From the UHGV virus genome UHGV-0074586: a stretch of DNA of 11,801 nt. One strand, given 5' to 3'. Of the stretch, positions 2 to 8,358 are shown in pieces. Source of the stretch: a virus. Below the pieces are notes generated by a model. The model saw only the letters and a program-made list of their open reading frames with translations, did not search any database and was not told the origin of the DNA. The position numbers were made by a program, and so were the translations under genes. Every line of letters starts with the position of its first letter. The first letter of the stretch is position 1.

Positions 2-145
2 GAAAAAATGGGATTAGTAGGAATATCAGGTGACACTGCATTGAAGGCCACGAATAAAGCTGCCATGCGTCAGGCTCTGAAAGAAGCAATGGTTCCTATC
101 CCGGTATTTTATTGTGTAAATACCCGAGGTATTTATTTTTGGTGA
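2..145 (+). CDS. C-terminal fragment of a hypothetical protein whose ORF enters from beyond the left edge
   Basis: Frame is open from position 2 to a TGA at 143..145 (...MGLVGISGDTALKATNKAAMRQALKEAMVPIPVFYCVNTRGIYFW). No family recognised. An AT-rich hairpin plus T-run overlaps the last codons. Confidence 0.3.
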   Translation, partial: EKMGLVGISGDTALKATNKAAMRQALKEAMVPIPVFYCVNTRGIYFW

Positions 146-264
146 AATAATGATAAGCAAATGAATACAAAGGATATTTATTTTTTCGGTGTCTGCTTGT
201 TCAGTGCTTTTTATGCGGGATATGTGAAGTGGATCCCGATAGCTATTGCTGCCGGGATTATGGG

Positions 265-654
265 TTAGTCAGCGAAGGTTAAGACGAGAATTACCTTAAT
301 GATGTCTGCTACAACAGACACGGCCATAGATAAACCAAAGACAATCCAAGCCATAGAGATGTCTTCACTACCATCGTATAGAGTTCCGTAATCACTGGTG
401 TAAGGCGTAAATGTCGCGCCTTGATACAACAGGTATAAGCTTGAACCATAGAGGATAAATGCAGATATCCCTTGTATTGCTATGATCACTAGAATCATGA
501 AACGAGCTGATCTATGCGCCCAAGCCTGGCTTATTTTTTCTGATAGAGATTTCGCAATAAAAGCATGCGCTAAGCCGTAAATTGTCGAGATTGACAACAT
601 CCCAAAAAAGCTTGCTATAGCGGTTCCAACCATAATCGCCCCTTGCGTGATCAA
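265..654 (-). CDS. small multi-pass inner-membrane protein in the rexB position, immediately downstream of cI; candidate superinfection-exclusion or abortive-infection protein
   Basis: 129-aa ORF with about four hydrophobic helices. Its start overlaps the cI stop in an ATGA arrangement (651..654), implying co-translation with the repressor. Function inferred only from position and topology. Confidence 0.6.
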   Translation of the reverse strand: MITQGAIMVGTAIASFFGMLSISTIYGLAHAFIAKSLSEKISQAWAHRSARFMILVIIAIQGISAFILYGSSLYLLYQGATFTPYTSDYGTLYDGSEDISMAWIVFGLSMAVSVVADIIKVILVLTFAD

Positions 655-1771: not shown

Positions 1772-2050
1772 ATGGAACTTACAAGTACTCGCAAGAAAGC
1801 GAATGCAATTACAAGCAACATCCTGAATCGAATTGCTGTACGTGGTCAGCGAAAGGTTGCCGACGCGTTAGGGATTAATGAATCGCAAATTTCGCGATGG
1901 AAAGACAGCTTCATCCCCAAAATGGGAATGCTTCTGGCTGTTCTTGAATGGGGTGTTGAAGACGAGGAGTTGGCGGAACTGGCTAAGAAAGTAGCCAAAA
2001 TGCTGACAAAAGAAAAAGCCCCGAAGAACGGCGAATTCTTCGAGGCCTGA
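1772..2050 (+). CDS. cII: CII transcriptional activator
   Basis: 92 aa with the ...SQISRWK...IPK...MLLAVLEWGV... core of lambda CII. The upstream ttaaggaaatacttacat-ATG matches the lambda cII initiation region as I recall it. The ORF-track start at 1685 would run through nutR and tR1 and is rejected. Confidence 0.85.
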   Translation: MELTSTRKKANAITSNILNRIAVRGQRKVADALGINESQISRWKDSFIPKMGMLLAVLEWGVEDEELAELAKKVAKMLTKEKAPKNGEFFEA

Positions 2051-2084
2051 TGTAGAAAGACTGGATCAATCCACAGGAGTAATT

Positions 2085-2246
2085 ATGACAAAACGTCGTA
2101 AGAAATACCAGGAAAAAGAAGAGATTCGACACCCTGATTCACCTGAGGGATTAGTGGTAGCCGCAGCAAATAACAGGGCGTTCGCAGAGCGCCTTGTTGG
2201 TGTTTACAGACTAGCAAAAGCAGGAGTGAAACATGGGCGTCGTTAA
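2085..2246 (+). CDS. small basic hypothetical protein (53 aa) between cII and the replication genes
   Basis: AGGAG at 2075..2079 is 5 nt upstream of ATG 2085. Product MTKRRKKYQEKEEIRHPDSPEGLVVAAANNRAFAERLVGVYRLAKAGVKHGRR. Overlaps the O-like start by 14 nt. Below the ORF-track size cutoff. Confidence 0.4.
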   Translation: MTKRRKKYQEKEEIRHPDSPEGLVVAAANNRAFAERLVGVYRLAKAGVKHGRR

Positions 2247-3123
2247 GTTAGCTGATTACAGGCATAACCCTGTACAACATCAGGAGGCATCCAGTATGGG
2301 GTATGTCTCTATACACCGCCAGTTTATGGACAGCAGGCTCTATAAGGACTCTCAGGCAGTACATCTTTGGCTTCACTTAATCCTCAAGGCTAATCACGAA
2401 TCTACTGTCGTCAATACGGATATCGGTCCGATAACTGTTGATCGCGGTCAGATGATAACTGGACGCCCGTCGCTGGTCAGAGAAACATTCATCCCCGACA
2501 ACAAAGTTCGGAGCTTATTACGGACTTTTGAGTCGAAAGGGATGCTTAATATTTGCTCGATGGGGAAGAAATTTAGCCTGTTTACAATCGTTAAATATGA
2601 CGATTTTCAGGCAAAAAATTGTCCAACGGTTGTCCAACGGTTGTCCAACGCAAACACCAGTAATGGCGAGGCTCTCAGCGGAGATTGTCCAACGGTTGTC
2701 CAACGGTTGTCCATAAACAATAATATAAATAATATCTCTAATACTGACGTATTAGAGAGTGCCACAGCAGACAAAAAGTCTGACAAGAAAAAACCTTCCG
2801 TTAGCTGTCAGGATGTTGTCGATGCTTACCACGAAATCCTTCCTGAAGCGCCAAGAATCCGCGCACTGAATGACAAGCGTAAAAACCAGATCCGAACGTT
2901 CTGGCGCAAAGCCGGAGTGATAACCCGCCAGCTTGACGGGCATGGGTTCACGATGCAGGACTGGAGAAATTATTTGAGCTACGTAGGCGAAAATTGCCGA
3001 TGGATGTTCGAAGAGCGTCCAAACCATCAACGCGGAACCGTCTGGCACAAAAAGGGATTTGATTTCCTGCTTAACGACAATACCTACCTGAAAGTTCGTG
3101 AGGGTGAACACGATGACCGATAA
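2233..3123 (+). CDS. O-like replication initiation protein (iteron-binding), origin embedded in the gene
   Basis: 296 aa. AGGAG at 2222..2226 precedes ATG 2233. Position after cII, internal iterons and translational coupling to a DnaB-type helicase indicate a lambda O / P22 gp18 analogue. Not sequence-similar to lambda O as far as I can recall. Confidence 0.7.
   Translation: MGVVKLADYRHNPVQHQEASSMGYVSIHRQFMDSRLYKDSQAVHLWLHLILKANHESTVVNTDIGPITVDRGQMITGRPSLVRETFIPDNKVRSLLRTFESKGMLNICSMGKKFSLFTIVKYDDFQAKNCPTVVQRLSNANTSNGEALSGDCPTVVQRLSINNNINNISNTDVLESATADKKSDKKKPSVSCQDVVDAYHEILPEAPRIRALNDKRKNQIRTFWRKAGVITRQLDGHGFTMQDWRNYLSYVGENCRWMFEERPNHQRGTVWHKKGFDFLLNDNTYLKVREGEHDDR
2619..2717. repeat. origin iterons: two clusters of three tandem 11-bp repeats TTGTCCAACGG (2619..2651 and 2685..2717)
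   Basis: Direct repeats with 11-bp periodicity, last copy of each cluster degenerate, clusters separated by about 33 bp, followed by an AT-rich stretch. They fall in the linker of the O-like protein (repeated translation PTVVQRLSN). Confidence 0.8.
2713..2760. promoter_or_regulatory. AT-rich DNA-unwinding-element-like tract flanking the iterons
   Basis: ataaacaataatataaataatatctctaatactgacgtattagagag is almost pure A/T directly 3' of the iterons, the classic lambdoid ori layout. Confidence 0.5.
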
Positions 3124-4549
3124 TTTTTATGCGCCGCCCCATAGCATCGAGGCAGAGCAGGCGGTGATTGGTGGATTGCTTCTGGATGATGACAGCAGTG
3201 AGCGCGTCCAGAAAGTTCTGGCGATGCTGAAGCCTGACTCATTTTACAGCCGGCCACACAAAATCCTTTTCGAAGAAATAACCAGAATGCACCGGGAGCA
3301 AAAGCCAGTAGATGGCCTGACGCTTTTCGATGAGCTGGAGCGTAAATCGTTAACGGCGTCTGTTGGCGGTTTTGCTTATATCGCTGAGATCGCAAAGAAC
3401 ACGCCAAGCGCAGCAAACATCGTTGCCTATGCAATGCAGGTTCGTGAAACCGCAATGGAACGCTACGCCATCAACCGCATGACTGAAGCGACGGAATTGC
3501 TCTATTCCCGCAACGGAATGACTGCAACACAGAAGTACGAAGCTATTCAGTCGATTTTCACGCAACTGACAGACCATGCAAAAACCGGATCGCGTCGCGG
3601 CCTTCGCTCATTTGGTGAGGTCATGGAAGACTGGGTTAGCGACCTTGAGAAGCGATTTGACCCGTCAGGCGAACAACGAGGAATGAGCACAGGGATCCCA
3701 TCGCTGGACAGGATGCTGTCACCGAAAGGTCTGGTGAAAGGCTCTCTGTTTGTCATTGGCGCTCGCCCTAAGATGGGGAAAACGACGCTATACAGCCAGA
3801 TGGCAATCAATTGCGCAGTGCATGAGAAAAAGCCAGCTCTGATGTTCAGCCTTGAAATGCCAGGTGACCAGATACTGGAAAAACTGGTAGGGCAGAAGTC
3901 TGGTGTTAACCCGAATATTTTTTACCTTCCGGCGACAAATGACGCCGATGACGGCTATCAGGGTGATTACGATGGCGACTTCAACAGGGCGATCGAAACA
4001 GCAAATCGCTTGAGTGAAATCGACCTGCTTTACATCGACGACACGCCGGGATTATCTCTGGCTCAAATCGTCAGCGAAAGCCGTCGAATCAAGCGAGAAA
4101 AAGGATGTGTTGGCATGATTCTGGTCGATTACCTGACACTAATGACCGCTGAGAAGGCCGATCGCAACGACCTTGCTTACGGCATGATCACCAAAGGACT
4201 GAAGAACCTTGCCAAAGAGCTTGATTGCGTTGTTGTGCTTCTGACACAGCTTAACCGCGCACTGGAAAGCCGAACCAATAAACGCCCATTACCAAGTGAC
4301 TCACGAGATACAGGGCAGATTGAACAGGATTGCGATTATTGGGTGGGGATCCATCGTGAAGGTGCTTTTGATGACAGCGTTCCTCCTGGTGAAACCGAAC
4401 TAATCCTTCGCCTCAATCGTCATGGCAATACCGGCACGGTGTATTGCATACAGGCAAATGGCGCTATTTATGACACAGACCAACAGTCTGCTGAAATGCG
4501 CCGCCGTGAACGCGAGGAACCGCAGTCCAAGAAGAAAGGAGGGTTCTGA
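3113..4549 (+). CDS. DnaB-family replicative helicase (P22 gp12-type)
   Basis: 478 aa with a DnaB N-terminal signature (HSIEAEQAVIGGLLLD), Walker A GARPKMGKT and a RecA-like C-terminal core. ATG 3113 overlaps the O-like stop (3121..3123); GAGGGTG lies upstream. The ORF-track GTG at 3098 is less likely. Confidence 0.9.
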   Translation: MTDNFYAPPHSIEAEQAVIGGLLLDDDSSERVQKVLAMLKPDSFYSRPHKILFEEITRMHREQKPVDGLTLFDELERKSLTASVGGFAYIAEIAKNTPSAANIVAYAMQVRETAMERYAINRMTEATELLYSRNGMTATQKYEAIQSIFTQLTDHAKTGSRRGLRSFGEVMEDWVSDLEKRFDPSGEQRGMSTGIPSLDRMLSPKGLVKGSLFVIGARPKMGKTTLYSQMAINCAVHEKKPALMFSLEMPGDQILEKLVGQKSGVNPNIFYLPATNDADDGYQGDYDGDFNRAIETANRLSEIDLLYIDDTPGLSLAQIVSESRRIKREKGCVGMILVDYLTLMTAEKADRNDLAYGMITKGLKNLAKELDCVVVLLTQLNRALESRTNKRPLPSDSRDTGQIEQDCDYWVGIHREGAFDDSVPPGETELILRLNRHGNTGTVYCIQANGAIYDTDQQSAEMRRREREEPQSKKKGGF

Positions 4550-4653
4550 TGACCATCTACATCACTGAGCTAATAGCAGGGTTATCGTTACTAATGGTTC
4601 TTACTGTATATATTATTAAGTATATTCTTTATGCGAATAAAAAAACTAATTGA
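4549..4653 (+). CDS. 34-aa hydrophobic single-pass peptide, translationally coupled to the helicase stop
   Basis: ATG 4549 overlaps the helicase TGA (4547..4549) with AGGAGG at 4538..4543. Product MTIYITELIAGLSLLMVLTVYIIKYILYANKKTN. Caveat: AT-rich DNA yields hydrophobic ORFs by chance. Confidence 0.3.
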   Translation: MTIYITELIAGLSLLMVLTVYIIKYILYANKKTN

Positions 4654-5242
4654 TCACGATGAGCTTCTGTCAACATTATCATATGACTCAGAAACAGGAA
4701 TATTTAAATGGCTAAAAACAAATTCAGTAGTAAGAGTAAAAGGTAGTATTGCTGGAGGTGTTAGTGGTGGTTATATATGCATTAGCATAAATAATGTTTT
4801 GTATTATGCGCATAGACTTGCTTGGTTCTATGTATACAAAAAATGGCCTCCTAAGTTTATTGATCATGTAAATGGGAACAGACTTGACAATAGGATTTCA
4901 AATCTAAGACTGGCAACAGAAGAGCAGAATGCAAGAAACATTGTAGGGAATAGGTTAAACACATCCGGTGCGATTGGAGTGTCTTGGTATAAGCCAACTG
5001 GCAGGTGGAAGTCTTATGTTGGTTATAAAAATAAGACAATATCGTTAGGGTATTTCGATAGCAAAGAAGATGCAGCATTCATAGCAGCACTAGCAAGAAA
5101 GAAACTATATGGAACTTATGCGAGTAAAGCACTTAATTGCGAGCATGAGCTTTTATCTCAATTTAATAATGATGAGGATAAACTTGCGGAATATCTTAAG
5201 GAAAAATCTAAAAGGACTCGAAAGCGTGTTAAAAAAAGATAA
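4631..5242 (+). CDS. HNH homing-type endonuclease with C-terminal AP2 DNA-binding domain
   Basis: HNH motif (YYAHRLAWF...IDHVNGNRLDNRISNLRLATEEQNARN) and AP2-like segment (GVSWYKPTGRWKSYVGYKNKTISLGYFDSKEDAAFIAA). The gene sits in a visibly AT-rich island unlike its neighbours. Confidence 0.85.
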   Translation: MRIKKLIDHDELLSTLSYDSETGIFKWLKTNSVVRVKGSIAGGVSGGYICISINNVLYYAHRLAWFYVYKKWPPKFIDHVNGNRLDNRISNLRLATEEQNARNIVGNRLNTSGAIGVSWYKPTGRWKSYVGYKNKTISLGYFDSKEDAAFIAALARKKLYGTYASKALNCEHELLSQFNNDEDKLAEYLKEKSKRTRKRVKKR

Positions 5243-8202: not shown

Positions 8203-8277
8203 GGGTCAGTCGTATAAAGGTCATTACTGAAGGCTGTTAACCTTCTTATCGTGGTTCGAGTCCACGCTGTCCCGCCA
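8203..8277 (+). tRNA. tRNA-Asn (anticodon GUU), phage-encoded
   Basis: Hand-folded cloverleaf: 7-bp acceptor stem with one T-T mismatch, perfect anticodon stem GAAGG/CCTTC with loop CTGTTAA, perfect T-arm CGTGG-TTCGAGT-CCACG, encoded CCA. The D-stem has only 3 pairs. Confidence 0.6.
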
Positions 8278-8282
8278 AATAT

Positions 8283-8358
8283 GCTGGTTTAGCTCCAATG
8301 GTAGAGCAGTCGCCTTGTAAGCGAATGGGTAGCGGTTCAAGTCCGTTAACCAGCACCA
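8283..8358 (+). tRNA. tRNA-Thr (anticodon UGU), phage-encoded
   Basis: Hand-folded cloverleaf: perfect acceptor stem GCTGGTT/AACCAGC, D-arm GCTC-CAATGGTA-GAGC, anticodon loop CTTGTAA, T-arm AGCGG-TTCAAGT-CCGTT, discriminator A and CCA. Confidence 0.7.

Follow-up and report, generated by a model that had tools for sequence, protein, structure and literature searches.

Which function do the short direct repeats inside the replication initiator gene of this lambda-like phage serve, and which protein would read them? The original prediction had placed a replication origin, composed of two triplets of 11-bp iterons and an AT-rich element, inside the gene of an O-like protein. Our analyses of the window (the whole stretch of 11,801 nucleotides of virus genome UHGV-0074586) indicated, with a probability of roughly 0.87, that the element is the theta-replication origin of a lambdoid phage or prophage, situated where its own initiator gene codes for the linker. 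As the predicted origin of a lambda-like E. coli phage it is ordinary, and the same element has been annotated before.

Repeats, AT-rich block and inverted repeat in the initiator gene

Analysis of the nucleotide sequence revealed that the 11-bp unit TTGTCCAACGG occurs in two tandem arrays of three head-to-tail copies each (Table 1). Tandem Repeats Finder returned the same period (11) and consensus (TTGTCCAACGG) for the intervals 2619-2650 (2.9 copies) and 2685-2713 (2.6 copies), both with 100% matches. Four copies are exact (starts 2619, 2630, 2685 and 2696), and the exact unit was found zero times in 200 of 200 dinucleotide-preserving shuffles. The third copy (start 2641), TTGTCCAACGC, carries one mismatch to TTGTCCAACGG and the sixth (start 2707), TTGTCCATAAA, agrees with it in the first seven of its 11 bases, so that the predicted count of 3 + 3 tandem copies was right, provided that a slightly degenerate third and a clearly degenerate sixth copy are included. 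Elsewhere in the whole window no additional copies of TTGTCCAACGG were found at up to two mismatches, and an exact-string literature search for TTGTCCAACGG retrieved no paper.

The spacer that separates the triplets measures exactly 33 bp, hence all six copies share one 11-bp register and the triplet starts lie 66 bp apart. The six units are asymmetric and show no dyad symmetry. Translation of the 11-bp unit runs through all three frames, and therefore the encoded 11-residue peptide is itself non-repetitive and the repeating unit is one of DNA and not of peptide. The warning that the repeats should not be mistaken for a CRISPR array was upheld by their anatomy, as they are 11 bp long, abut each other and lie inside an intact ORF; a CRISPR array, which needs repeats of 23-50 bp and unique spacers of similar length and is usually non-coding, was ruled out on anatomy alone.

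The AT-rich block that had been predicted to follow the iterons was also recovered, its GC content (Table 1) being far below the 46% of the whole initiator gene; over the longer interval 2711-2760 the value is 24%. A perfect inverted repeat adjoins the block; it lies within the coordinates of the original prediction and had been overlooked there. As a single strand, the 91 nt between 2700 and 2790 fold at -12 kcal/mol (z = -4.8), with the hairpin of the inverted repeat as the main stem. Taken together, the repeats, the AT block and the inverted repeat code for residues 129-176, between two confidently modelled domains, and the disordered region in the AlphaFold model covers nearly all of these residues, which bears out their placement inside the linker.

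Table 1. Positions of the predicted origin elements, the initiator with its domains and the adjoining helicase gene in the window
Feature	Position (nt)	Strand	Residues (aa)	Sequence or composition	Remarks
Initiator gene	2233..3123	+	296		'replication protein O' in the annotation of relatives
Initiator N-terminal winged-helix DNA-binding domain (predicted)	2320-2607		~30-125		
Initiator disordered linker	2620-2796		130-188		AlphaFold pLDDT < 50
Iteron triplet 1	2619..2651			TTGTCCAACGG, TTGTCCAACGG, TTGTCCAACGC	11-bp direct repeats, head to tail
Inter-triplet spacer	2652..2684			33 bp	Sequence variable in relatives; length constant in 32/34 loci
Iteron triplet 2	2685..2717			TTGTCCAACGG, TTGTCCAACGG, TTGTCCATAAA	Final copy truncated, likewise in every relative
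AT-rich block	2711..2734			12.5% GC	Candidate DNA-unwinding element
Perfect inverted repeat	2735..2758			TCTCTAATAC-TGAC-GTATTAGAGA	10-bp arms 2735-2744 and 2749-2758, 4-nt loop
Initiator C-terminal helical domain	2800-3120		190-296		AlphaFold boundaries
Phage DnaB-family replicative helicase, partner of the initiator	3098..4549	+			Likely start ATG 3113

The initiator protein and the adjacent helicase gene

The initiator matched phrog_345, 'replication initiation O-like', with E = 4e-85 (residues 1-296 against profile positions 1-292 of 297), and is 99% identical to the product of Sf6 gene 43 and to those of the O genes of HK629, mEp234 and HK75. Searches against Pfam and NCBIfam assigned it to no family, DUF7376 giving a sub-threshold match only, and a sequence search of the PDB produced no match. 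The family of lambda O, PF04492 (Phage_rep_O), did not match the initiator even at E <= 1, while the controls lambda O and P22 gp18 were detected with E values of about 5.7e-36 and 6.9e-38, respectively. Direct comparison with lambda O by BLASTP yielded E = 4.6, and hhalign with a profile of lambda O and P22 gp18 yielded a probability of 0.4%.

Instead, the N-terminal domain aligned with residues 2-112 of G38P, the origin-binding protein (replisome organiser) of Bacillus phage SPP1, both by BLASTP (E = 8e-13, 28% identity over 110 residues) and by hhalign (probability 97.9%, E = 5e-13), and tblastn searches with the initiator also retrieved SPP1 and SPP1-like phages. Sequence comparison thus indicates that the initiator is not a homologue of lambda O and that its DNA-binding domain belongs with that of SPP1 G38P; the designation 'O-like' holds for its position and function but not for homology. 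Foldseek paired the N-terminal domain with winged-helix DNA binders at weak E-values (0.03-0.17), and the AlphaFold model was derived from a shallow alignment of database proteins (32 sequences) and reached a pTM of 0.37. The C-terminal domain shows weak similarity to its counterpart in P22 gp18 (E = 1e-4), a protein likewise paired with a DnaB-type helicase.

No gene intervenes between the initiator gene and the helicase gene, which, if translated from its likely start, overlaps the end of the former by 11 nt; in HK629, Sf6 and mEpX2 the annotated start of the homologous gene lies at the equivalent position. The helicase scored 584 bits against TIGR03600 phage_DnaB (cut-off 499) and matched Pfam DnaB and DnaB_C. 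A DnaB-family helicase gene directly downstream of the initiator gene and overlapping it is also annotated in HK629, Sf6, L, HK620 and in Klebsiella and Yersinia phages. A small upstream ORF (2085-2246) is conserved together with the replication module. A scan of the complete genome of mEpX2, a close relative, showed the iteron core at no other site.

Conservation of the element and co-variation with the initiator

Comparison of 34 homologous loci from phages and prophages of Enterobacterales revealed that 32 of them carry the 3 x 11 + 33 + 3 x 11 layout with the AT block and the inverted repeat at the same position of the gene, the remaining two having a 12-bp variant. The 11-bp period, the truncated sixth copy and the gene position are conserved in related loci, and the 33-bp spacing, the AT block and the palindrome are retained down to about 40% protein identity; the AT block is present in all 32 loci of standard layout, with a GC content of 0.10-0.23 over 30 nt. 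Within allele classes, nucleotide identity amounted to 92-98% for the iteron cores, 66-79% for the DNA coding for the N-terminal domain and 57-69% for the spacer. By these alignments the iteron cores are the best-conserved DNA of the gene, and the pattern indicates that the repeats are under selection as DNA.

The number of copies varies in steps of 66 bp (22 aa), so that the protein measures 274, 296 or 318 aa or, in the HK620 type, 299, 321 or 343 aa. Natural variants with one triplet encode proteins of 274 aa and 277 aa; either three iterons suffice or some such prophages are replication-defective. In the natural variant P0039 the linker is frameshifted and the repeats are still read through. 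The allele of the window was present in 145 of 5426 complete E. coli genomes.

The iteron core differs by allele (GTCCAACG, TACCAGCA, TGCCAACA, GTCCAGCC and others), all copies changing jointly, and its variation parallels that of the N-terminal domain, not that of the C-terminal domain. Between the window and HK620, VT2-Sakai and locus L013, the C-terminal domains are 94-100% identical while the N-terminal domains are about 50% identical and the iterons are different. Pairs of loci with the same core averaged 76% identity in the N-terminal domain, and the other pairs, grouped by core distance, 52-63%. Residues of the predicted recognition helix (here R93-S94) track the bases that precede CCA, [KR]S being found with GTCCA, KY with TGCCA and QY with TACCA, a correspondence drawn from the 34 loci and from 360 protein cluster representatives in which the linker peptide served as proxy for the iteron. 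This co-variation is confounded by shared ancestry, since the allele classes are largely clades and independent changes are consequently few, the clearest being that of loci L025/L026. The proposal that the iterons set the replication specificity of the phage draws comparative support from these data, in that the cores follow the N-terminal domain allele.

The inverted repeat was found in 34 of 34 loci with 11 different stem sequences, each perfectly complementary. For this element only, a role as RNA was weighed: it might end leftward (antisense) transcription as an intrinsic terminator or, as a hairpin, serve the processing or pausing of the rightward early mRNA. The minus-strand reading of the hairpin has TATTATTTAT behind it, bears a weak resemblance to a terminator and passes a simple scan for such sites; the record of phage L has a predicted minus-strand terminator at the homologous site, and the maintenance of a stem by compensatory change is also a property of RNA structures. 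However, an AT-rich stem with three G-C pairs and an interrupted T-run would make a poor terminator, and a leftward promoter downstream is not indicated above chance (four promoter-like sites against 2.2 +/- 1.3 expected), the promoter-like sites of the minus strand being mere iteron sequence. Moreover, none of the 11 stems has a G-T wobble position, as expected of a DNA palindrome symmetric on both strands and not of an RNA helix, an analogous palindrome occupies the same relative position in the lambda ori, and Rfam gave no RNA family in the origin region, its matches elsewhere in the window being two tRNAs only. We consider an RNA role of the inverted repeat unlikely.

It is far less probable that the repeats bind a different protein, such as host DnaA, the product of the small upstream ORF or a regulator, and thereby control expression or copy number with the initiator acting elsewhere. 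The conservation of the small ORF with the module would agree with this, and on the minus strand the truncated sixth copy gives TTATGGACA (2708-2716), which differs from the relaxed DnaA box at a single position; in other alleles the sixth copy terminates in CCACA. Against it, the full iterons differ from a DnaA box at three or more positions, the sequence of the iterons follows the initiator's own N-terminal domain, including the predicted recognition-helix residues, and repeats of just this kind within gene 38 are bound by the SPP1 G38P domain to which that N-terminal domain is homologous. The DnaA-dependent version was rejected, as the window has no excess of DnaA-box-like sites (27 against an expected 21.7 +/- 4.6) and the single site of the region with one mismatch is the truncated sixth iteron on the minus strand. 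Lowest in probability is a reading of the repeats as a protein repeat of the linker (CPTVVQRLS occurs twice) or as a neutral product of slippage or unequal crossing-over devoid of cis-acting DNA function, for although a linker predicted to be disordered should tolerate insertions and copy-number steps of 66 bp are the expected outcome of unequal crossing-over between repeats, the unit runs through three frames with no unit-level peptide periodicity, the cores stay conserved beside a spacer that drifts within the same linker, the copies change jointly between alleles and with the N-terminal domain, and the spacing, AT block and palindrome persist over wide protein divergence.

The reading as a replication origin, by comparison, is well supported because the layout is kept, the cores track the initiator allele, the inverted repeat is always complementary and the iteron DNA is the best conserved; for the present allele, initiator binding and origin activity are strong predictions. 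A search of the accessible literature yielded no footprint, gel-shift or origin-activity report for this allele or any member of the family. The location of the origin inside the initiator gene, as originally proposed, is favoured by the conservation of layout and cores, by the co-variation of iterons and N-terminal domain and by GenBank annotations.

Relation to known origins and proposed mode of initiation

The element is already known, since the records of Sf6, HK620 and L in GenBank carry a rep_origin feature on the homologous stretch, and six imprecise 11-bp repeats, TGTCCAACGGA, were described as the probable origin of phage L in a paper of 2020 (PMC8022706). Origins of the Sf6, L and HK620 type are called 'putative' or 'likely' in GenBank and in that paper. 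Shigella phage Sf6 (gene 43) is 99% identical to the window over the entire gene, with the rep_origin feature on the corresponding stretch, and Salmonella phage L (gene 18) shares the core TGTCCAACG. In Sf6, L and the coliphages HK620/HK022/VT2-Sakai (gene O) the putative origin occupies the same position in a gene of the phrog_345 family and has the 3 x 11 + 33 + 3 x 11 arrangement together with the AT block and the inverted repeat. HK620, HK022 and VT2-Sakai have a C-terminal domain almost identical to that of the window, while their iteron core is TACCAGCA and their N-terminal domain, at about 50% identity, belongs to another allele. The module of the window has the features of this family, namely a full-length phrog_345 protein, two triplets 66 bp apart with an AT block and an inverted repeat, and an overlapping DnaB-family gene. 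According to the genetics cited in PMC8022706, L and P22 can exchange their replication regions solely as entire modules.

In SPP1, whose G38P has a homologous N-terminal domain, oriL lies inside gene 38 right after the part coding for that domain, and in it an AT-rich unwinding element comes after tandem units of 11 bp, AGAAACGACAG and its variants; G38P binds the oriL repeats, and a 356-bp oriL fragment is sufficient for replication in vitro (PMC6316719, PMC5737612). SPP1 differs from the window in having about five contiguous repeats instead of 3 + 33 bp + 3, an AT block with no trailing inverted repeat, a C-terminal domain of the Phg_2220_C type (which matches G38P only), a separate helicase loader, G39P, and an additional binding region, oriR; in the window and in the mEpX2 genome no further iteron cluster was detected.

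Lambda likewise has its ori inside the initiator gene, flanked by the coding sequences of the N- and C-terminal domains, with iterons followed by an AT block and a palindrome. The palindrome of lambda, to the right of the AT block, has 12-nt arms and a 4-nt loop, while that of the window has 10-bp arms and a 4-nt loop. The gene order (cII, oop, small ORF, initiator, partner) and the modular logic, in which the N-terminal domain carries origin specificity and the C-terminal domain partner specificity, are also alike. The DNA-binding domains, on the contrary, have no detectable homology (PF04492, BLASTP, hhalign), lambda O recruits host DnaB via P while the module of the window encodes its own DnaB-type helicase, like P22 gp12, and the four iterons of lambda are about 19 bp long, with internal dyad symmetry and 20-24 bp apart, while those of the window are six asymmetric 11-bp units. 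The iterons are thus unlike those of lambda, as had been noted. Of the 'lambdoid ori-in-O arrangement' the location inside the initiator gene and the order of elements stand, but the protein is no O homologue and its partner is no P-type loader. A short inverted repeat after the AT block was looked for in P22 and SPP1 and was absent, indicating that the palindrome is common to lambda and the present family and not to every initiator-internal origin.

Iteron plasmid origins such as RSF1010 oriV also combine direct repeats and a plasmid-encoded winged-helix initiator with an adjacent AT-rich unwinding element, and in RSF1010 an inverted repeat with single-strand initiation signals comes next. 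Plasmid iterons usually measure 17-22 bp and lie outside the rep gene. To our knowledge, the initiator has no detectable homology to plasmid Rep proteins.

For the predicted origin the following course of initiation is proposed. The winged-helix N-terminal domain, of SPP1 G38P type, would bind the 11-bp direct repeats through the core TGTCCAACG, in which CCA is invariant. The head-to-tail sites, one per helical turn in two three-site clusters set 66 bp apart, would align several initiator molecules on roughly one face of the DNA, a geometry that is approximate because 11 bp slightly exceeds the 10.5-bp turn of B-DNA. The initiator-DNA complex would then destabilise the adjoining AT block, flanked by the 24-bp palindrome, and the C-terminal domain would bring the phage's own DnaB-family helicase, encoded by the next gene, onto the opened DNA, after which host primase and polymerase would take over. 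The palindrome may take some part in these steps.

A wider proposal, which may prove correct but which we hold tentatively and rate somewhat below even odds, is that many enterobacterial 'lambdoid O proteins' are G38P-type organisers with a two-residue code ([KR]S/KY/QY) and that the palindrome is an essential DNA element of the origin. Such organisers would read asymmetric 11-bp head-to-tail sites, the residues choosing the two bases before CCA. A hairpin or cruciform formed by the palindrome might position helicase loading or priming, with a parallel in the lambda ori.

No concept is changed by this element, since both the design of an origin inside its initiator gene and the specific repeat were described previously. 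The origin and the N-terminal domain of its initiator determine the replication specificity of a phage; on this depend the viability of hybrid phages, the mutual interference of plasmids or prophages via origin titration, and the places at which origin-sensing defence systems could act, enrichment at the lambda ori having been demonstrated for Lamassu (PMC12663957). As the allele is common and a sister allele is found in Shiga-toxin phages, e.g. VT2-Sakai, its accurate annotation, as a G38P-type initiator with 11-bp iterons and its own helicase, is of practical value.

Genetic context and the iteron array

The window corresponds to the early-right region of a lambdoid phage or prophage and carries an S24-peptidase repressor, a cII homologue, a small ORF, the initiator, a DnaB-type helicase, a nin-like region, Q and lysis genes. 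It is a mosaic whose top matches, coliphages mEpX2 and HK620, showed 97.5-97.9% identity across 57-65% of the window length. The HNH endonuclease gene located just 3' of the helicase gene is missing from the corresponding place in both coliphages, which may contribute to the mosaic gap seen when the whole window is aligned. The small ORF is a homologue of orf48/gp53 and travels with the replication module in P22, L, HK97, HK620 and Klebsiella and Yersinia phages. The oop-like region harbors a strong terminator-like hairpin (stem 2048-2016, 14 pairs followed by TTTCTTTTGT), and the homologous stretch in the HK629 record is annotated as similar to lambda oop RNA.

Features of the window and of the initiator protein (aa, initiator residues)
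Feature	Position	Strand	Details
oop-like antisense RNA region	~1998-2067	-	overlaps 3' end of cII homologue
Small conserved ORF	2085-2246	+	53 aa; phrog_1331; overlaps initiator gene start
Initiator ORF	2233-3123	+	296 aa
N-terminal domain	aa ~30-125		confident, pLDDT 80-89 (AlphaFold)
Disordered stretch	aa 130-188		pLDDT < 50 (AlphaFold)
C-terminal helical domain	aa 190-296		confident (AlphaFold)
Period-11 array 1	2619-2650		consensus TTGTCCAACGG (Tandem Repeats Finder)
Spacer	2652-2684		33 bp
Period-11 array 2	2685-2713		consensus as array 1
AT block	2711-2734		12.5% GC
Perfect inverted repeat	2735-2758		TCTCTAATAC-TGAC-GTATTAGAGA; 10-bp arms, 4-nt loop; just right of AT block
Phage DnaB-family helicase gene	3098/3113-4549	+	next after initiator; TIGR03600 584 bits vs cut-off 499
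HNH endonuclease gene	4631-5242	+	phrog_99, 5.6e-72
tRNA-Asn (GTT)	8203-8277	+	late-regulatory part
tRNA-Thr (TGT)	8283-8358	+	late-regulatory part; adjacent to tRNA-Asn

Exact iteron copies begin at 2619, 2630, 2685 and 2696, and none was found in 200 shuffles; the 2641 copy has a final C in place of G and that at 2707 reads TTGTCCATAAA. The length of the spacer places all six copies in one 11-bp register. The repeat finder, the exact copies and the common register all bear out the 3 + 3 tandem arrangement of the original prediction, and the AT-rich block that it placed after the iterons was likewise recovered. Since the 11-bp unit is translated in all three frames, a peptide repeat cannot account for the array. 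No further copies were found elsewhere in the window and the core TGTCCAACG is confined to the initiator gene in the complete mEpX2 genome, therefore no second, oriR-like site is present in either. The truncated sixth iteron (2708-2716, minus strand, TTATGGACA) has one mismatch to the relaxed DnaA box TTWTNCACA, and in other alleles this copy has a CCACA end; the resemblance is probably a coincidence, because the window shows no excess of DnaA-box-like sites.

The initiator and its relation to lambda O and SPP1 G38P

The initiator matched PHROG 345, 'replication initiation O-like', from end to end (4e-85), and no Pfam family was matched. AlphaFold modelling from 32 family members gave two confident domains separated by a disordered stretch. 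The iterons, AT block and palindrome code for aa 129-176 and so lie exactly within this predicted linker, as had been proposed from the sequence. Foldseek matches of the N-domain were winged-helix DNA-binding domains (CodY, MarR, TubR, CRP), with weak E values (0.03-0.17) and high probabilities.

The label 'O-like' holds for position and role but not for homology. The Pfam family Phage_rep_O was found in lambda O (5.7e-36) and P22 gp18 (6.9e-38) and gave no match in the initiator even at E <= 1; BLASTP against lambda O gave E = 4.6, and hhalign of the family profile against lambda O and P22 gp18 gave 0.4% probability. On the contrary, aa 20-127 aligned with aa 2-112 of SPP1 G38P (BLASTP, 28% identity, E = 8e-13), and the family profile matched G38P with 97.9% probability (hhalign, E = 5e-13). 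These comparisons assign the predicted DNA-binding domain to the SPP1 G38P type and not to the lambda O type. The C-domain showed a weak likeness to that of P22 gp18 (BLASTP, 25% identity, E = 1e-4), which fits the pairing of both proteins with a DnaB-type phage helicase.

G38P is a proven origin-binding protein that binds 'AB boxes', and a 356-bp oriL fragment of SPP1 suffices for theta replication in vitro (PMC6316719, PMC5737612). SPP1 oriL lies inside gene 38, where the N-domain coding part runs directly into about five 11-bp units in tandem (AGAAACGACAG and variants), with an AT-rich stretch beyond them. G38P/oriL gives the proposed mechanism its firmest experimental footing.

Conservation, co-variation and array size

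Homologues of graded similarity were taken from annotated phages (L, HK620, VT2-Sakai, two Klebsiella phages and one Yersinia phage), and a bacterial-genome scan provided 28 further loci, all from Enterobacterales prophages except for odd host labels. One lies on a 799-kb contig labelled Chryseobacterium sp. 18061 (L011, 86% identity) and another on a 501-bp contig labelled Catenulispora yoronensis (L036); both assemblies probably carry a wrong label or contamination. An array of three 11-bp repeats, then a spacer of 33 bp and a second set of three whose final copy is truncated, was found at the identical gene position in 32 of the 34 loci, all with an AT block of 10-23% GC; the remaining two carry a 12-bp spacing variant. 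Within the core CCA is invariant and the rest varies by allele: GTCCAACG in this window, L and L010-L012, TACCAGCA in HK620, VT2-Sakai and others, TGCCAACA in Klebsiella phi13.1, Yersinia loci and others, GTCCAGCC in Chronis, Enterobacter loci and others, and rarer cores in single loci.

Comparison of the window with HK620, VT2-Sakai or the prophage locus L013 revealed 98-100% identity in the C-domain, about 50% in the N-domain, and iterons that differ at 4/8 core positions. N-domain identity averaged 76% for same-core pairs vs 52-63% for other pairs, grouped by core distance; the iterons thus follow the N-domain. Within the predicted recognition helix, the residue pair at R93-S94 varies with the dinucleotide that precedes CCA ([KR]S with GT, KY with TG, QY with TA), most clearly in loci L025/L026, whose N-domain is otherwise like that of the TGCCA class, yet has QY with TACCA iterons. 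The association was also seen in 360 protein cluster representatives with the linker peptide as proxy for the iteron; shared ancestry confounds the counts, which makes the association no more than suggestive. The iterons are under selection at the DNA level because, within allele classes, their cores (92-98% identical) are better kept than N-domain coding DNA (66-79%) and the spacer of the linker itself (57-69%), and because the unit spans three frames.

Database proteins of the window's allele have 274, 296 or 318 aa and those of the HK620 allele 299, 321 or 343 aa. Such variants (P0002, P0036, P0041, P0121; window 2619-2717) differ by multiples of 22 aa and correspond to one, two, three or four 66-bp 'triplet + spacer' units, two being by far the commonest; one-triplet forms occur in dozens of contigs, complete Shigella and E. 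coli chromosomes among them. This suggests unequal crossing-over within the array and resembles lambda-type Stx phages, whose iteron number is known to vary. One 292-aa protein (P0039, from a single 5.5-kb contig) has 3 + 2 iterons and a linker frame shifted across the repeats (…AKIVQRLSNGCPTQTPVMARLSAEIVQRLSINN…), which could be a tolerated real frameshift or an assembly error.

The palindrome and the predicted origin

The inverted repeat, absent from the original prediction, extends it slightly. Folded as single-stranded DNA, 2700-2790 is much more stable than its shuffled versions (z = -4.8), and this hairpin forms its principal stem. Each of the 34 loci has a perfect inverted repeat of 9-10 bp around a 4-nt loop, in 11 distinct stem sequences without G-T positions. 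All stems are fully Watson-Crick complementary despite wholly unlike encoded peptides (ISNTDVLES, ISSTDVEES, LLPNGSKYV, LISKDIKC), which amounts to compensatory evolution, either of a nucleic-acid structure or of a symmetric site. In lambda ori a comparable palindrome lies to the right of the AT block (lambda 39162-39189, 12-nt arms 92% complementary, 4-nt loop), and the P22 and SPP1 origins have none. The phage L annotation and a terminator scan would make the palindrome a leftward terminator, but with an AT-rich stem, an interrupted T-run and no evident promoter for leftward transcription this main rival is weak. We favour a role at the DNA level, at the edge of the candidate unwinding element, and the conserved palindrome completes a three-part predicted origin.

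The element is already on record: in Sf6 (AF547987) a rep_origin at 28385-28480 in gene 43, corresponding to window 2618-2713, carries the note 'repeat region reminiscent of the phage lambda origin; similar to phage HK620', a rep_origin is likewise placed within gene O of HK620 (AF335538), and phage L (MW013502) carries a 'putative origin of replication'. In print, six imprecise 11-bp repeats of phage L are described as its likely origin, and L gp18 is just 15% identical to lambda O (PMC8022706); genetics cited there showed that the replication regions of L and P22 swap only as whole modules. A literature search found no biochemical or plasmid-replication test for any member of the initiator/origin family.

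The conserved layout, N-domain co-variation, DNA-level selection and G38P homology indicate that the origin-in-initiator-gene interpretation was essentially right, and we put the probability that 2619-2758 is an origin bound by the product of its own gene at nearly nine in ten. Having been annotated and described before, the element is ordinary; it represents the predicted origin in a family of lambdoid replication modules with many members. The present analysis adds a predicted DNA-binding domain of the G38P type, DNA-level selection on iterons that change together with the N-domain, a palindrome kept throughout the loci compared, and variation of the array in modules of 66 bp.
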